The position numbers and the translations under genes are program-made. Positions 2,753-22,041 of a stretch of 31,377 bases of DNA are shown piece by piece. The DNA is from a virus: the UHGV virus genome UHGV-0092341, one strand, 5' to 3'. Every line of letters begins with the position of its first letter. Position 1 is the first letter of the stretch. The notes under the pieces were generated by a model, which had not been told where the DNA came from, ran no database searches, and was given only the letters and a program-made list of their open reading frames with translations.

Positions 2753-4522
2753 TCAGTTGCCGTTAACAATGCTGATAACACTGCTGCGGACCGGCGTGGT
2801 CAGCGTGGCCATGACTTCATCCAGTGCGGCTTCCGGTACGCCGTCCGGGTACTGTGCCGTTAACTGGCGGTAATGTTCCGGCGTCCAGGTAAGGCCGTCG
2901 GCGCTGAACTTATCGCGCAGGGCTTTCGCGGCCTCCACATGAGTCATGGGACGTTGTTCAGTGCGCGGCCCGCGTACGTCAGAGGCCTGACCACGCTTCG
3001 GCATATAGGCCGGAAGTGTGGCGTCATCAATATGTTTATACGGGTCAAGCCGCCCGCCGAACGGCAGCGCCTTCGCCTTGCGTGCGGCGGCTGCATCTGC
3101 GGCGTTGTCTGTACCGGTAACCAGCGCTTCGGTTTCTTTTGCCGCCATCTGTGCCGGGGTTTCCGGCAGGGCTTTGTAACTTTCGCCAAATACCGCCGCG
3201 CCTTCAGCAAAGCCAAACTCGTTCTTTCTGACCTCTTCGACCAGGAAGAACGTCTCGTGGCCGTCCTCACCGGTCAGAACCACCTGTGCCACATCGCTGC
3301 GCCATGGGTTACGGGTAATCATCAGTTTTTCACCAACCAGTACGCCCGGTACCGTTGATACGTCAAATTCAGTGCCCCGGAACGAGACACGAAGTTTTGG
3401 CGTGACTTTGCGGAGTTCTGGTGTCGCCACAGCCAGTTCACGGCATACCTCAACGGAAGGCGCTTTTTTCAGCTGCTCAGCAGTAATCTTCAGCCAGATA
3501 TCCGTGCGGGTTTTACCGTGGCGGCTGTGAACAGCCGTGGCGTTAAAGTGGCTGCGCCATTTCGCGGCCAGCGCGTTGAGTTCTTCCAGACTGTGAACCG
3601 GCCGGAACTTCAGACCCGGCTCCAGCTTGCGTTCGATAATGTCACGCGCCTTTTCCACCTGTCCGGTGGCGCGGGCGTTATGCGGCTTGTGTGCTATCAG
3701 GTCGATGCCCAGTGAGCGGCACATGTTTTTCGTCATACCCGCGGTGTTTGCCGAGCCGGGGTCGAGATAGAGTATTTTCGGCACGCCGTGCAGCACGTCT
3801 GCGCCGCCACGCTCCTGCATGGCGTTGATAAGCACAGAACACAGGTTCTCACCGGATTCCGCACCCGTCACATACTCAACGTAAATCCAGCCGCTGGCAT
3901 GGTCGGTAATCTCGTAACTCCACACGCGGTCACTGGCGATACGGGCAAGGTTAGCGGGCTTGTTCTTGTAGAACTTCGCGCTGTCCATCACCTGCAGTCC
4001 TTTGTGTCCATTACTCAGGTAGTAAAGCGTGCAGAGCGAGGCATCAATCTGCCAGACATGATTGGGATGCAGACTGGCCACTTCAGTATGTGGTGCAGGG
4101 GCATCCAGTTGTTCCGGGTGCAGGCCATAGTTACGCAGGGCTCGGCTGATGGCATCTTCGGACAACGGGAAAAACTCACCGGTGGTTTCATCTGTTCTGC
4201 CTGCGGAGATAAAGCCGTTAGCCCGCAGGGTTTCCACTGCATCCGCGATGGAATAGAGACGCTTACCGTTCTTGCGGGTGGCCTCACGCAGTGTGGCAGA
4301 TATCAGCGCGGCTTCGTCGCGGGTCAGGGCGCTGCGCCCGGCATCGGCGCGTTTTTTGCGTTTATCAGTCACAGAGACCTCCTTCAGCCTGCGCAGCAGA
4401 GTGGCGCGGGACATGCCAAGTTCAGCACAGGCAGCGTCGTATACTGCACCGCGTTTACCATGCCCCGCATTACGTGCCGCGCGGGCTGTTTCAACCAGTT
4501 TTTCAGTCAGTGCCGGGGTCAT
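2753..4522 (-). CDS. DDE transposase (MuA-like, rve/integrase core)
   Basis: 589 aa; HVWQIDAS-type first catalytic Asp region; N-terminal HTH-like segment; paired with B ATPase downstream; SD AGGGAAG upstream. Confidence 0.85.
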   Translation of the reverse strand: MTPALTEKLVETARAARNAGHGKRGAVYDAACAELGMSRATLLRRLKEVSVTDKRKKRADAGRSALTRDEAALISATLREATRKNGKRLYSIADAVETLRANGFISAGRTDETTGEFFPLSEDAISRALRNYGLHPEQLDAPAPHTEVASLHPNHVWQIDASLCTLYYLSNGHKGLQVMDSAKFYKNKPANLARIASDRVWSYEITDHASGWIYVEYVTGAESGENLCSVLINAMQERGGADVLHGVPKILYLDPGSANTAGMTKNMCRSLGIDLIAHKPHNARATGQVEKARDIIERKLEPGLKFRPVHSLEELNALAAKWRSHFNATAVHSRHGKTRTDIWLKITAEQLKKAPSVEVCRELAVATPELRKVTPKLRVSFRGTEFDVSTVPGVLVGEKLMITRNPWRSDVAQVVLTGEDGHETFFLVEEVRKNEFGFAEGAAVFGESYKALPETPAQMAAKETEALVTGTDNAADAAAARKAKALPFGGRLDPYKHIDDATLPAYMPKRGQASDVRGPRTEQRPMTHVEAAKALRDKFSADGLTWTPEHYRQLTAQYPDGVPEAALDEVMATLTTPVRSSVISIVNGN

Positions 4523-6143: not shown

Positions 6144-6332
6144 TCAGGCTGCCTGAGCTGTTGATTTCAGCCCCAGTTTCACGGCGATTTCATGGGATTT
6201 ACCGTAACGGGCTTTGGTCTGCCCGTTGAGAACGCGGTATACCTCATTGCGGTTGTAGCCGTTTTCTTCTGCCCAGCGGGTGAACGTGATCCCGCGCTGG
6301 CGAAAGAGGGCTTTGACTTGTTCTGCAGTCAT
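6144..6332 (-). CDS. Ner/Cro-like small DNA-binding protein, first early gene
   Basis: 62 aa; strong SD AAGGAG; first gene of leftward operon, divergent from repressor as in Mu c/ner. Confidence 0.6.
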   Translation of the reverse strand: MTAEQVKALFRQRGITFTRWAEENGYNRNEVYRVLNGQTKARYGKSHEIAVKLGLKSTAQAA

Positions 6333-6432
6333 CGTTGTCTCCTTTGTTGATGCAATGATGTTTGCCTTATGTGTGATAGATTATGGTGCAGATTACCTCA
6401 CCAGTCAACTTAAAGAGTGCAGAAAAACTCAC
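6333..6432. promoter_or_regulatory. divergent early/repressor control region (promoters and operators expected)
   Basis: 100-bp AT-rich gap between divergent starts of Ner-like gene (6332) and repressor (6433); operators not mapped. Confidence 0.4.
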
Positions 6433-6771
6433 ATGATCGGGTTACGTATTAAAGAAGAAAGAGAGCGTCTATCTCTTACACAGCAAGGGTTGGCTGATGC
6501 TATAGGTGTGGCAAAGAGAACTTTCATTGATTGGGAAAAAGATCGCACTTCTCCTACTGCAGTGCAGTTATCTGCACTATCAGAAATCGGTGTAGATATT
6601 TTGTATGTAGTTACTGGGGTGCGGAGTCAGCCTGTTGTTGCACCGTATGTGTCACAAGAAAAGAAAGAGTTAATGGATGCATTCGACGAAATGAGCCCCG
6701 AACAACGGAGGGCAATTCTTGAGGTCGGCAAAGTCTTCATTCAACCAAAACCGAGCAAACTCGCAGGCTGA
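6433..6771 (+). CDS. XRE-family HTH repressor (c-repressor analogue)
   Basis: HTH LSLTQQGLADAIGVAKRTFIDWEKDRTSP. Start taken at ATG 6433 because the track's 6280 start would overlap the Ner-like gene. Confidence 0.65.
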   Translation: MIGLRIKEERERLSLTQQGLADAIGVAKRTFIDWEKDRTSPTAVQLSALSEIGVDILYVVTGVRSQPVVAPYVSQEKKELMDAFDEMSPEQRRAILEVGKVFIQPKPSKLAG

Positions 6772-6857
6772 TTCTGACCCGGACACAAAGGGCGCGTGGT
6801 TGATCTGGATGCTTTCAGAAAACATCGCCAGTGACATAGTGGAAGTTGTCTGGTTTA

Positions 6858-6884
6858 CCGGAAAGCATTGCGCTTTCCGGTTTT
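6858..6884 (+). terminator. rho-independent terminator-like hairpin (9-bp stem CCGGAAAGC/GCTTTCCGG, 5-nt loop, then TTTT)
   Basis: Read directly from sequence; lies between convergent repressor and methyltransferase 3' ends. Confidence 0.5.
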
Positions 6885-6887
6885 GCT

Positions 6888-7652
6888 TCAGAAGTTGCAG
6901 ATTACCAGTTCACGGCGCGGCGTGGGTTTCCCCGCCAGACTGTAGTTGATATTCACCGTCTGTATGTTCAGTTCAGTGAACACCCGACGCATCTGCGGAA
7001 TGTCGTTCACCGAGATAATCATCTTTCCTCTGATGCACCGGGCCAGTTCTGCGAGTAGTGTGTAGTTCTCTTCAGGAAAATCCACACCATAGCCTTCCGT
7101 CCCCAGATAGGGCGGATCACAGTAGAACAGCGTGTGCGGACGGTCATAACGCTTAATGCACTGGTGCCAGTCCATGTGTTCTATCACCGTTCTGGAAAGC
7201 CGCAGGTGTGCCGCTGACAGTTCTTCTTCAATACGTAGCAGATTGAAGCGTGGCGGAGATGTGGTGGAGGTGCCGAAGCTGTGCCCTGCCACCTTGCCAC
7301 CAAATGCCTGCTTCTGGAGGTAGTAGAACCGTGCCGCACGCTGGATATCCGTCAGTGTTTCTTCCGGGGTGATCTGCAGCCATTTGTAGATCTGCCGGCT
7401 GACCAGCGCCCATTTGAACTGGCGGATAAATTCTTCCAGGTGATGTTTTACCACCCGGTACAGATTCACCAGTTCACCATTGATATCGTTAATGACTTCG
7501 AGCTTGCCGGGAGTCTTGAGAAAATAGAGCGCAGCTGCGCCGCAGAACGGCTCCACATAACATTCATGCGCAGGAAACAGCGGCAGGATGTGTTTTCCCA
7601 GGCGGCGTTTGCCACCAATCCATGGAACGATGGGTAATGTCTGCGTTTTCAT
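6888..7652 (-). CDS. Dam-like N6-adenine DNA methyltransferase (D12 class), orphan
   Basis: 254 aa; motif I FCGAAA near N-terminus and motif IV DPPY (FYCDPPYLG) near C-terminus; no adjacent restriction-enzyme-like gene. Confidence 0.8.
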   Translation of the reverse strand: MKTQTLPIVPWIGGKRRLGKHILPLFPAHECYVEPFCGAAALYFLKTPGKLEVINDINGELVNLYRVVKHHLEEFIRQFKWALVSRQIYKWLQITPEETLTDIQRAARFYYLQKQAFGGKVAGHSFGTSTTSPPRFNLLRIEEELSAAHLRLSRTVIEHMDWHQCIKRYDRPHTLFYCDPPYLGTEGYGVDFPEENYTLLAELARCIRGKMIISVNDIPQMRRVFTELNIQTVNINYSLAGKPTPRRELVICNF

Positions 7653-7693
7653 AATCTGTAAGCCTTTTACAATTATTAAAAATATGGCAGGCT

Positions 7694-7794
7694 AGTCTGG
7701 TCTCGCGAGACTGACTGAACCTCGGTCGGCTCACAGCGCATTCCTGTGGGACGATGGCCAGCCCGGCTTTCGGGTGCCGGGCTGGTCGTTCTTT
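7694..7794. other. structured intergenic element: 12-bp perfect palindrome (7700-7711) plus 10-bp-stem GC hairpin (7758-7785) followed by T-rich tract
   Basis: Read directly; hairpin plus TCGTTCTTT resembles an intrinsic terminator in plus orientation although no plus-strand gene precedes it. Confidence 0.3.
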
Positions 7795-7841
7795 CATGAT
7801 GCGGCAGGGATAGTGGGATTTCTGTTAATGTGGTTTAGGGA

Positions 7842-8057
7842 TTATCCGGGGCGATTTTCTGACCTTATCTGGTCCAGGGCATAAGTGATCCCTTCTGCAA
7901 AAACAGAAGTATCAAACTGCTTTTGTATTTCCTGAAAATGAACAGTAGCACGACAGATACTCAGTTCTCCGCGATGTAACCGGATAATATCTTCCAGAAT
8001 ATTGTTCACTGCTTCAGCACGGCGCTGATGTTCTGTTAACGTTAATCGGGGATTCAT
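7842..8057 (-). CDS. hypothetical protein (71 aa)
   Basis: Perfect SD AAGGAG with 6-nt spacer before ATG at 8057; no motif recognised. Confidence 0.5.
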   Translation of the reverse strand: MNPRLTLTEHQRRAEAVNNILEDIIRLHRGELSICRATVHFQEIQKQFDTSVFAEGITYALDQIRSENRPG

Positions 8058-8460
8058 GATGCACTCCTTAAATGATGATTTTTATGTACTCACCGGCAAA
8101 ATATTCTGCCGATTACTGAACACGCATCCGGCACCTCAGGTTTTGATTTATTCTGGTTTTTTCGATATCCCGGACCAGGTTGATCACGACCAGAAAAAGT
8201 GCCGGTATTTTATTGATACGCTGATATGGCTTCGGGATAACAGCTATATTCGTTACTCTCAGTTGCTGGCTGTGGGAGCGGCTGATGTCGTCCTCACGGA
8301 AAAAACGCTCTGTCTGCTCAATGCCATGCCGACCTTTCTGCAGCCCCGGCCCGTACCATTTAAAGAGTTGCTTCTGGATGCAGTAAAAACCGGCGAAAAT
8401 GCAGTCATCGCTGAATGCGTATCCCGGATTATGCGTTACGTGTTTAATGAACGTAAGTGA
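8056..8460 (+). CDS. hypothetical protein (134 aa), AT-rich, nested antisense between two minus-strand genes
   Basis: Only long ORF across 8058-8435. Start codon overlaps the divergent 71-aa gene start; 3' end overlaps the P-loop gene 3' end by 25 nt. About 39% GC over the first 105 nt (hand count). Weak RBS. Confidence 0.45.
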   Translation: MMHSLNDDFYVLTGKIFCRLLNTHPAPQVLIYSGFFDIPDQVDHDQKKCRYFIDTLIWLRDNSYIRYSQLLAVGAADVVLTEKTLCLLNAMPTFLQPRPVPFKELLLDAVKTGENAVIAECVSRIMRYVFNERK

Positions 8461-9179
8461 GGTTTATCTGCTGTCTGCATAATCCCGATAGCCAGTGCGA
8501 GGGGAAGTAATTCCGGGGAAACTCTTTCAAACAGCGATGCCCATTCTCCTCTCGCCATCACTCTGTCCAGTCCGCCCCCCAGCTGCATTTCAGCAATCTT
8601 CCTGATTTCCCGGAACAACGCCGCTTTGATCTCTTCATGCTCAGCTTTATTTTCCGGTGTCAGAATGTATTCGTCGAAGAACCGGGGAAGCTGGTTAACG
8701 GGGATTGTGTTCACCGGGAGGTGTTCCTGCTTCCCGTACTTCGGGGCCGAAAAACATTCTGTTGGCTGACCGGTGAGTTTACGTAACTCCTTCATGAGCA
8801 GTTCCTGATCGTAAACTGTCATCAGTGCCGCAATGGTGGCATGCAGTGCATCGGGCAGTATCCAGGGTTGTCGGCCCGTGGGGCATATAACATCCAGCAG
8901 CTCATTCGTCCGACAGATACGCTCCTCGCCGTATGACAACAGGTCCTGTCCTGTGTATTCCTCCAGCCTGATCACTGTGCCAGCCCGTGGCTTCTGCCAG
9001 GTCGTCAGATCATCGCCACTCATACGGCGCTCATTCTCCACGTCAGCAGCATCGACAATGACGCTGTTTCCGAGTTCCTGTTTCACCACTTCCTCTATCC
9101 GCGCCAGTACGTAACTTTTACCGCTGCCCACAGGACCGGACACGGTGACAGTGATGACCGGATTCAGTGTATGTGTCAT
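8436..9179 (-). CDS. P-loop NTPase/kinase-like protein (247 aa), function unknown
   Basis: Walker A GPVGSGKS at residues 15-22, candidate Walker B VIVDAAD about 20 residues later; SD GAGGAG 8 nt upstream; divergent from late operon. Confidence 0.65.
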   Translation of the reverse strand: MTHTLNPVITVTVSGPVGSGKSYVLARIEEVVKQELGNSVIVDAADVENERRMSGDDLTTWQKPRAGTVIRLEEYTGQDLLSYGEERICRTNELLDVICPTGRQPWILPDALHATIAALMTVYDQELLMKELRKLTGQPTECFSAPKYGKQEHLPVNTIPVNQLPRFFDEYILTPENKAEHEEIKAALFREIRKIAEMQLGGGLDRVMARGEWASLFERVSPELLPLALAIGIMQTADKPHLRSLNT

Positions 9180-9237: not shown

Positions 9238-9288
9238 TCTCTTAACGCGCTTTAAAATCCTTCGCGCCCTGTATTTGTGATGCTGTCT
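9238..9288 (+). promoter_or_regulatory. candidate late promoter P-lys (conserved bipartite motif, copy 1)
   Basis: TCTCTTAA-N4-CTTTAAAATC-N20-ATGCTGTCT, ending 22 nt before the first late gene; same architecture at three other sites. Confidence 0.5.
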
Positions 9289-9309
9289 CCACCAGACAAG
9301 GAGACACAC

Positions 9310-9660
9310 ATGAAAAACCTGAAAAAATTCATTCCCCCTGTTAAAAAACCTCGCCTCAGCGGCTGGCTGCTGACCTCAGTGCTGTTGCTGGGCACCATCG
9401 CTCTGGTCTCGCCACAGCAGTTGCCTGTTGTGATCTACAAGCTGGCACTCATCACGCTGGCAGCAGTGCTGGGTTACTGGCTTGACCGTTCGCTCTTCCC
9501 TAAAGCCCGTCCCGGTCAGTACCTGAAACATGAAGACAGGCTGATGGCTGATGGGCGTTTCCCTGTACAGACCGGCCTTCACCTGGTGTTTTCTGCTGCG
9601 TTAATCCGCCGTGCACTGATTGTTGCAGCAGTCTGTCTGGCCGTAGCGATGGGGCTTTAA
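9310..9660 (+). CDS. holin-like membrane protein (three predicted TM segments)
   Basis: SD AAGGAG before ATG 9310; three hydrophobic helices; first gene of lysis cassette, stop overlaps endolysin start. Confidence 0.55.
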   Translation: MKNLKKFIPPVKKPRLSGWLLTSVLLLGTIALVSPQQLPVVIYKLALITLAAVLGYWLDRSLFPKARPGQYLKHEDRLMADGRFPVQTGLHLVFSAALIRRALIVAAVCLAVAMGL

Positions 9661-21520: not shown

Positions 21521-22041
21521 TGTCAAAGATTGAGATAAACCGCATCACGAATGCCAACATCTATCTGGATGGTACTAACCTGCTGGGACGGGCTGAGGAA
21601 GTTAAACTCCCCGATGTCTCCATGATTATGCAGGAACACAAGGCGCTGGGGATGGTGGGTAAGGTGGAACTCCCGGCTGGTTTTGACAAACTGGAAGGCG
21701 AAATCAAATGGAACAGCTTTTACCGCGATGCGATGCTGTCTGCCGCGAACCCGTACAGGTCGCTGGCACTGCAGTGTCGTTCCAGCGTCCAGCGCTACAG
21801 CTCGCAGGGGCTGATTGACGAAATCCCGCTGGTCACCTTCCTGACGATTATGTTCAAGAAGAACCCGCTGGGGACGTTCAAACAGCACGAGAACGCCGAG
21901 TTCTCCAGTAGCTTCACCTGCACGTATATCAGACAGGTACTGGATGGTGAAGAGCTGCTGCAACTGGACTATCTGGCCAACATCTTCCGGGTCGGCGGTG
22001 TTGATCAACTGACTGACTACCGTATCAATATCGGGGGCTGA
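21520..22041 (+). CDS. tail tube protein (Mu M / P2 FII-like)
   Basis: 173 aa, overlapping start with sheath stop; typical size and position. Confidence 0.75.
   Translation: MSKIEINRITNANIYLDGTNLLGRAEEVKLPDVSMIMQEHKALGMVGKVELPAGFDKLEGEIKWNSFYRDAMLSAANPYRSLALQCRSSVQRYSSQGLIDEIPLVTFLTIMFKKNPLGTFKQHENAEFSSSFTCTYIRQVLDGEELLQLDYLANIFRVGGVDQLTDYRINIGG

Follow-up and report, generated by a model that had tools for sequence, protein, structure and literature searches.

An orphan adenine methyltransferase gene beside a divergent structured RNA

The DNA analysed here, called the window throughout, is the whole 31,377-nucleotide (nt) stretch of virus genome UHGV-0092341, which is a BcepMu-like transposable prophage. 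Between its repressor and its lysis genes lies a gene that, by its sequence, is a real D12-class (alpha-type) N6-adenine DNA methyltransferase gene. It is an orphan, its DNA-recognition hairpin is altered with respect to the Dam enzymes, and it is linked to a structured RNA that is encoded divergently on the opposite strand (coordinates in Table 1). An earlier note on this DNA had described the gene as an orphan Dam-like methyltransferase carried as phage cargo; it gave no strand, which is minus, and it missed the conserved structured RNA beside the gene.

The open reading frame (ORF) begins with an ATG at 7652 and ends at 6888, and on reading the sequence an earlier in-frame start is impossible. 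In phage PhiKM (locus L001, 6900-7754, minus strand) and for protein P0001 the N-terminus is annotated as longer, giving 285 or, for P0001, 320 residues and running across the RNA-coding region; such extended N-termini in deposited annotations are probably start-codon mis-calls. The window protein is 94.9% identical to the PhiKM methylase. It matches PF02086 (MethyltransfD12) over profile positions 1-248 of 253 (E=2.7e-27, 96.6 bits, gathering cut-off 22 bits) and the PHROG family phrog_56, 'DNA methyltransferase' (E=1.2e-97). Its PDB relatives in a phmmer search are DpnM (E=3e-16) and Escherichia coli Dam (EcoDam; E=1.6e-13), with no match to T4 Dam at E<0.001, and a profile of the subfamily retrieved the same relatives among solved structures. 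The order of motifs is that of the D12 class, FCGAAA (residues 36-41) being followed by the hairpin (117-136) and this in turn by DPPY (179-182). FCGAAA aligns to F35/G37 of EcoDam, its F and first G being present in 74 of 75 subfamily members (the remaining one has a gap), and DPPY aligns with EcoDam D181-Y184 and T4 Dam D171-Y174 and is kept in 73 of the 75, with gaps in the other two. The earlier placement in the D12 class from these two motifs is therefore upheld, as both lie where they were said to lie and DPPY survives a proper alignment. An AlphaFold2 model, built on a 16-sequence alignment of 84-94% identity, reached a mean predicted local distance difference test score of 50.5 and was discarded. 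The encoded enzyme is presumably catalytically active.

The recognition hairpin lacks the GATC contacts of the Dam enzymes

The window protein scores 111.4 bits against TIGR00571 (Dam), below the cut-off of 114.85 bits, and 63.7 bits against NF008152, the E. coli Dam equivalog, far below its cut-off of 441 bits; PADLOC prefers MTase_II PDLC03253 (E=6e-111) to the best orphan-Dam model (1.8e-27). To compare residues, the 75 subfamily members were aligned with EcoDam, DpnM and a T4 Dam sequence that exactly matches PDB 1q0s. The positions that serve S-adenosylmethionine (AdoMet) binding and catalysis (W10, K14, E33, F35, G37, D54 and DPPY) are essentially invariant, and the intercalating aromatic (Y119 in EcoDam, F111 in T4 Dam, F117 in the window) is F in 75/75 members. 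The residues that read the bases are replaced. In EcoDam the hairpin contacts bases through R124, L122, P134 and N120; R124 contacts Gua4, is common to T4 Dam (as R116) and DpnM, and its change to alanine loses discrimination at that base (PMC4417163). In the window the equivalent of R124 is A122, a position that varies between A, E, S and D across the subfamily, while L122 gives way to K or R, P134 to S, A or T, and N120 to G. The subfamily has instead its own conserved hairpin signature, AFGGKV..(Q/H).FGT.TT..P(R).NLLR. As the residues in contact with GATC are replaced while the catalytic and AdoMet residues are invariant, the enzyme is not, as far as its sequence tells, a canonical Dam, and a GATC target cannot be assumed. 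The labels 'Dam family', 'DpnIIA' and 'methyl-directed repair methylase' that relatives carry are not justified. What stands of the description 'Dam-like' is the catalytic core and the D12 class, and not the reading of GATC; the earlier caution that specificity cannot be read from the sequence was correct, with the addition that GATC is no default.

The main rival to the model developed below, and an unlikely one, is an ordinary GATC-specific phage Dam that tops up host methylation on fast-replicating phage DNA, so as to avoid nicking by MutH or to serve a methylation-dependent phage step, and whose hairpin is simply another reader of GATC. Many carriers of the subfamily are Betaproteobacteria such as Burkholderia, which are not known to have Dam; many others are Gammaproteobacteria. 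The count of GATC in the window is 91, against 162 expected from a second-order Markov model (observed/expected 0.56) and 119 from base composition, a weak signal that also speaks against a GATC enzyme. CTAG (0.40) and AATT (0.55) are under-represented in the window as well. That the closest solved relatives, DpnM and EcoDam, both methylate GATC, that databases call relatives Dam, DpnIIA or 'methyl-directed repair' methylases, and that the TIGR00571 score is barely under its cut-off all suit this rival, as does the finding that T4 Dam and EcoDam already differ in the residues that read the first base pair, a contact described as not conserved in the family (PMC4417163). It has to accommodate, however, an R124 equivalent that is both absent and variable within the subfamily, together with the replacement of L122, P134 and N120. 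Furthermore, the relative plu3449 (M.PluTORF3449), as which we take Photorhabdus laumondii protein P0184 (computed 29,803 Da, published 29,802 Da), shares 80.5% identity with the window protein and has almost the same hairpin. It is a solitary enzyme of prophage P80 in P. laumondii TT01, and REBASE predicts no target for it though it predicted GATC for another TT01 enzyme (PMC6092372). Our literature search for the recognition sequence of subfamily enzymes, or for methylomes of Mu-like prophages, found no specificity. Finally, tight control of the Com or RNA type, as described below, suits a harmful or broad activity better than a duplicate of Dam.

A three-way-junction RNA accompanies the gene

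Across enterobacterial prophages, the approximately 150 nt that adjoin the start codon are far better conserved than their surroundings and show paired changes in several hairpins. When only 20 close sequences are folded, similar consensus folds are obtained on both strands, and the sense strand of the methyltransferase then pairs CUGUGAGCC with the Shine-Dalgarno region, as would be expected of a cis-acting 5′ leader of the methyltransferase mRNA, whether translation-inhibiting or riboswitch-like. The strand was examined further in one alignment of 35 representatives less than 93% identical, folded on both strands. The plus strand reaches -40.6 kcal/mol against -21.9 kcal/mol for the methyltransferase-sense strand. 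On the plus strand P2 has 277 Watson-Crick, 68 G.U and no A.C cells, and those 68 would all be A.C on the sense strand; for P3 the ratio of G.U to A.C is 57:16 on the plus strand and 13:27 on the other. The helix that pairs with the Shine-Dalgarno region lacks covariation. The sense-strand leader that sequesters the Shine-Dalgarno was overturned by this two-strand folding of diverse sequences.

The plus-strand consensus is a three-way junction of 31 pairs, 19 of which have double compensatory changes. Paired cells amount to 94.7%, compared with 39-52% when partners are slid, and all five covariation measures, including two that are robust to phylogeny, beat 500/500 shuffles. P3 is followed by GUCGUUCUUUC, a tract that doubles as the 3′ strand of P1. 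The window copy folds alone with a minimum free energy of -53.7 kcal/mol (z=-4.5), and the covariance model finds it at 7707-7806 (86.2 bits, E=1.2e-23). The same model matches about 65 of 80 genome loci (L008-L087) and, in addition to these, Burkholderia phage KS9 (E=3.7e-13) and phage phiHAP-1 (E=1.9e-11), and gives no match in BcepMu, SuMu or Acba_14; 29 of the 31 pairs covary in 52 diverse loci, in a model-fitted alignment that leans towards structure. A pattern scan of viral contigs that included the ribosome-binding region gave 100 matches, 99 of them directly followed by a methyltransferase homologue, and a second pattern, made of the RNA core only and so independent of the methyltransferase, led to essentially the same viral loci. 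In every case the RNA is encoded opposite to the methyltransferase and immediately 5′ of it, or 5′ of com where that gene intervenes. The late gene upstream and the methyltransferase (or com) are separated by nothing but the RNA gene in KS9, phiHAP-1 and the com loci, and a transcript reading through into either gene would therefore be antisense to the RNA.

The RNA is uncatalogued, being unannotated in the records inspected and without a match in Rfam 15, where no family reaches gathering in the window and the sole permissive match is a generic hairpin (E=0.55). Permissive Rfam scans of six diverse loci brought up ctRNA_pGA1 (30.7, gathering 45) and SymR (29.8, gathering 61), both sub-threshold. 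Weinberg et al. (2017) reportedly described a candidate cis-regulatory motif, 'D12-methyl', that precedes genes for D12 methylases, which would suit a cis-acting leader; no Rfam family, this one included should it be present there, matches the RNA.

Upstream of the RNA, 35 of the 52 loci have a TAnnnT hexamer, often with TGn before it, that begins 19-21 nt ahead of the point where the model starts, compared with 0-4 loci at any other offset; the window copy has CAGGCT at -19 (7688-7693). From this positioned -10 element the RNA is predicted to start near 7700 and to be about 98 nt long. At 7658-7668 the plus strand reads GTAAGCCTTTT, which is AAAAGGCTTAC on the methyltransferase-sense strand, an 11-nt ribosome-binding region. 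Among the 35 representatives, which come from distant hosts, AAAAGGCTTAC varies little or not at all, an invariance that the search pattern partly imposes; it coincides with the expected place of a -35 or UP element for the RNA promoter, and its sequence is complementary to AGCCT in the -10 region of the RNA.

That there is no separate RNA gene, and that the element acts instead as the 5′ leader discussed above or as a terminator that insulates the lysis genes, is improbable. The -10 element is positioned for plus-strand transcription, and the lack of any matching Rfam family likewise fails to favour a leader. As for an insulator, P3 and its U-rich tail do resemble a plus-strand terminator just before the holin gene in Photorhabdus-type prophages, but in KS9, phiHAP-1 and the com loci the element stands in the same place with respect to the methyltransferase with no holin after it, and BcepMu, with a holin and no methyltransferase, does not have it. 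A lambda-6S-like leader or lysis-operon insulator was rejected on the same grounds, as the RNA goes with the methyltransferase into these other contexts and does not occur in BcepMu.

Relatives at the mom position and their expression

Of 74 homologous loci, 14 have a Com-like zinc-ribbon ORF (PF10122, E=4.7e-14) next to the methyltransferase, directly upstream and on the same strand. These 14 homologues are 60-75% identical to the window protein and lie in myovirus prophages, mostly of Betaproteobacteria. There com and the methyltransferase follow homologues of the Mu baseplate genes gp45, gp47 and gp48, which is the com-mom arrangement, Mom being replaced by the methyltransferase. In Mu-like prophages mom is known to be replaced by the non-specific adenine methyltransferases Hia5, Hin1523 and Nma1821 (Drozdz et al. 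2012, PMC3299994), and the present enzymes are a second D12 subfamily, besides Hia5, at that position. As a proxy for Hia5-type enzymes we used SuMu gp53, which occupies the mom position after a Com gene; BLASTP aligns it with the window protein over 47 residues of the DPPY neighbourhood only (E=0.007), and it scores 23 bits on PF02086 where the window protein scores 96.6. A non-specific enzyme of the Hia5 type was rejected on this basis. The window methyltransferase itself has no Com-like frame upstream and is not at the mom position, lying between the repressor and lysis genes. Elsewhere, in the early region of the window, a 65-residue stop-free frame on the minus strand (457-651) holds two CxxC pairs about 30 residues apart (KCIQC...CPYC), a spacing wider than in Mu Com.

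The phiE125 enzyme gp27 is reportedly active. The earlier note had left the function at 'anti-restriction or epigenetic', and of these two the evidence leans to self-modification in the lytic phase, since relatives of the enzyme stand under Com control at the mom position and there is practically no expression of plu3449 in the lysogen. The enzyme could alternatively be an epigenetic regulator of lysogenic conversion, expressed from the prophage, methylating the host chromosome and altering host expression. Its accessory slot beside the immunity region and its orientation against the late genes would suit such a role, the phi1026b adenine methylase is seen in lysogen RNA-seq (PMC2920897), and prophage methyltransferases with roles of this kind exist, for example PamA of S. 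aureus (PMC13076061). We nonetheless give this alternative only a slight probability. Expression of plu3449 was less than 0.001 times that of gyrB, and the methylome of its host had no motif attributable to it (PMC6092372). According to a secondary citation in PMC10688831, moreover, the phiE125 methyltransferases methylate the phage episome and not the host chromosome or the prophage, and the Com-linked homologues at the mom position speak for a late, lytic timing.

A mobile gene without a restriction partner

Members of the subfamily are found in BcepMu-like prophages, in the lambda-like phage KS9, in the telomere phage phiHAP-1 and in myovirus prophages. KS9 gp25, which its annotation likens to phiE125 gp27 and phi1026b gp26, sits after the lysis cassette of a lambda-like Burkholderia phage, and phiHAP-1 ORF26 sits after the tail genes of its telomere phage; both are 62-65% identical to the window protein. 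The enzyme is a promiscuous phage moron of a distinct and widely mobile subfamily that includes phiE125 gp27, KS9 gp25, phiHAP-1 ORF26 and plu3449.

ORF calling and clustering placed the 143 immediate neighbours across the 74 homologous loci in 109 unrelated clusters, the few recurrent ones being prophage backbone (holin, repressor, transposase), and no co-inherited endonuclease partner was found across these loci. In the window the flanking ORFs between 7842 and 9179 have no nuclease or defence match in Pfam, PADLOC or PHROGs and no PDB relative. These three cargo ORFs, which lie between the RNA and the holin gene, are found in the E. coli lineage only, and the methyltransferase is kept without them in Klebsiella phage KP12 and in Photorhabdus, Xenorhabdus, Mixta, Erwinia and Brenneria prophages; KP12 and the Photorhabdus-type prophages keep both methyltransferase and RNA. 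As relatives dispense with these ORFs, and as no nuclease or defence function can be recognised in them, they are not partners of the methyltransferase, and the earlier view of an orphan with no restriction endonuclease is confirmed. It is accordingly very improbable that the enzyme is the modification half of a restriction-modification or defence system whose partner hides among the neighbours, such as the P-loop protein at 8436-9179, even though three adjoining ORFs are of unknown function, one of them with a P-loop at its N-terminus, and some database records name relatives 'restriction endonuclease subunit M'.

The prophage and the neighbourhood of the gene

The 3.3-kb region around the gene has 94.8% DNA identity to Escherichia phage PhiKM (genus Bcepmuvirus) at 89% query coverage, and about 96% to a prophage of E. 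coli ABU 83972, whose methylase is WP_000783855.1 and whose counterpart of the repressor is annotated by RefSeq. DNA related to this region is present in 636 of 5,426 complete E. coli genomes (about 12%). BcepMu itself has gp18-20 between its repressor gp17 and holin gp21, and no methyltransferase there; the slot is accessory for that reason, and the description of the gene as phage cargo is borne out. The 247-residue P-loop protein encoded in this slot has no further recognisable domain. At the edge of the ABU 83972 prophage (L002, 1-173), a histidine-kinase fragment annotated 'partial in the middle of a contig' comes right after rstA, which points to disruption by the prophage of the next gene downstream; by its position this gene would be rstB.

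Table 1. Coordinates of the features described (positions are those of the window unless a locus is named; aa, amino acids; HTH, helix-turn-helix)
Feature	Position	Strand	Basis or remark
D12-class N6-adenine DNA methyltransferase gene, orphan	6888..7652	minus	uninterrupted ORF, 254 aa
Motif I (AdoMet binding), F36-C-G-A-A-A41	7530..7547	minus	read from sequence
Predicted DNA-recognition beta-hairpin, residues 117-136 (FGGKVAGHSFGTSTTSPPRF)	7245..7304	minus	length equals EcoDam Y119-Y138 hairpin
Motif IV (catalytic), D179-P-P-Y182	7107..7118	minus	read from sequence
Candidate small structured RNA, divergent from methyltransferase, about 98 nt, predicted ends	7700..7797	plus	covariance model, covariation, folding
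5′ hairpin of candidate RNA	7700-7711	plus	predicted
P1 helix	7712-7720 with 7788-7796	plus	consensus fold
P2 helix	7725-7755	plus	consensus fold
P3 helix, GC-rich, then U-rich tract	7756-7787	plus	consensus fold
Predicted extended -10 element of RNA, TGgCAGGCT	7685..7693	plus	positional conservation; putative function
Further RNA copies	L005:3856-3957; L006:3842-3940	minus	covariance model
Com-like ORF in com-linked loci (L025, L030, L032, L033, L036, L048, L050, L052, L057, L061, L062, L066, L071, L073)	at most 450 nt upstream of methyltransferase start		e.g. 5772-5999 in L036
cI-like HTH repressor gene, convergent with methyltransferase	6280..6771	plus	PF01381 HTH_3 E=3e-7; PHROG transcriptional-repressor families
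Intrinsic-terminator-like hairpin between repressor gene and methyltransferase 3′ end	6857..6881	plus	terminator scan: 10-bp stem, TTTGCTTC tail
Cargo ORF of unknown function	7842-8057	minus	phrog_4490 (PHROGs phrog_4490, phrog_2266 and phrog_3787 are listed for the three ORFs)
Cargo ORF of unknown function	8056-8460	plus	phrog_2266
Cargo ORF of unknown function, 247 aa, N-terminal P-loop (GPVGSGKS)	8436-9179	minus	phrog_3787
Holin, first gene of lysis/late cluster	9277..9660	plus	PF13272 Holin_2-3 E=1.8e-41; late genes onward
Ner-like HTH	6144-6332	minus	early operon
Transposase	2753-4522	minus	early operon
ExeA/MuB-like ATPase	1576-2781	minus	early operon
Gam	746-1276	minus	early operon

A model for control of the methyltransferase

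We propose, with about even confidence, that the locus encodes a tightly repressed stand-alone methylase with a rebuilt recognition hairpin and an RNA partner, which modifies phage DNA during lytic growth. In this model the methyltransferase and the divergently transcribed three-helix RNA, about 98 nt long, would form a two-part cassette. In the lysogen the RNA, or RNA polymerase and transcription at the RNA promoter, may hold the methyltransferase off, either through pairing of the RNA with transcripts that read into the gene from upstream or through competition between promoters. During lytic growth, strong late transcription would override this block and the enzyme would then methylate the replicating phage DNA, protecting the progeny in the next host from restriction that is sensitive to adenine methylation. 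By this function it would be an analogue of Mu Mom. Both the timing of expression and the anti-restriction benefit are inferred.

Several points weigh against this model. The activity of the enzyme and its timing are predictions, and the transcription, the ends and the regulatory role of the RNA are deduced from the sequence. The -10 hexamer of the window copy is CAGGCT rather than TAnnnT, the predicted start of the RNA lies about 48 nt upstream of the ATG and leaves the ribosome-binding site uncovered, and a sigma-70 scan gave no convincing promoter for the methyltransferase. E. coli already has Dam, and were the enzyme GATC-specific its anti-restriction benefit in this host would be small. 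Lastly, the phi1026b adenine methylase, whose homology is assumed from annotation notes, is reported to be expressed in a lysogen at 21,563 reads per kilobase per million mapped reads (PMC2920897), which speaks against silence in all lysogens.

A bolder form of the model, which we put forward tentatively, would make the pair a mobile, self-regulating 'Mom-like' anti-restriction cassette, in which an enzyme that is not directed at GATC, is possibly relaxed in specificity and harms the host is joined to an RNA regulator of a new three-way-junction class, antisense or protein-binding, that silences it up to the lytic phase, with Com added in some phages. Orphan phage methyltransferases are common and routinely labelled 'Dam' by annotation pipelines, and here a very widespread subfamily is so mislabelled whose DNA-reading residues differ from those of every structurally understood GATC enzyme. 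If the RNA does regulate the enzyme, it would provide a third way for a phage to silence its DNA-modifying enzyme in the lysogen and release it in lytic growth, next to translational activation by Com and the control of mom by Dam, OxyR and C. The enzyme could furthermore be useful as a reagent should its specificity prove new or relaxed, as with Hia5 (PMC3299994).

Comparison with known systems

Close parallels are plu3449, phiE125 gp27, phi1026b gp26, KS9 gp25 and phiHAP-1 ORF26, which are of the same subfamily and likewise solitary and phage-borne. KS9 gp25 and phiHAP-1 ORF26 have the same partner RNA as the window enzyme, whereas the types of host phage and the positions in the genome differ from the window for all five. 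EcoDam, T4 Dam and DpnM share with the window enzyme the Pfam family, the order of motifs, the conserved AdoMet and catalytic residues and the intercalating aromatic, and EcoDam and T4 Dam are also orphans; they are distant in sequence, however, and the R124, L122, N120 and P134 common to all three are replaced in the window enzyme.

Hia5, Hin1523 and Nma1821 are phage-borne, D12-related enzymes of transposable prophages with a divergent recognition region, and homologues of the window enzyme occupy the same position after com. They differ in being of another subfamily, by the SuMu proxy, and the window copy is without Com and away from the mom position, with a partner RNA that is absent from SuMu. 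The com-mom system of Mu is similar in placing an adenine-modifying function of a transposable phage under unusually tight post-transcriptional or promoter-level control, and Com is found upstream in the 14 homologues described above. Mom makes N6-carbamoylmethyl-adenine, and the mom promoter region also contains a divergent promoter, momP2. The Mom enzyme is unrelated to the AdoMet methyltransferase of the window, which has an RNA partner in place of Com.

The RNA resembles antisense RNAs such as the ctRNA of pGA1-type plasmids and the SymR of the SymE/SymR type I toxin-antitoxin system, in being about 100 nt long, on the opposite strand and on the 5′ side of a potentially harmful gene, in having first a stem-loop and then a GC-rich hairpin that ends in a U tail, and in the weak, sub-threshold Rfam resemblance on the correct strand. 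Restriction-modification systems also have antisense RNAs. The resemblance stays below gathering, so that the RNA is no member of these families; it has a covarying three-way junction, for which simple antisense RNAs have no need, and its predicted start does not overlap the ribosome-binding site of the methyltransferase. An orphan phage methyltransferase is of an ordinary kind, and what is new here is the non-Dam hairpin, the Com-linked relatives and, above all, the uncatalogued RNA.

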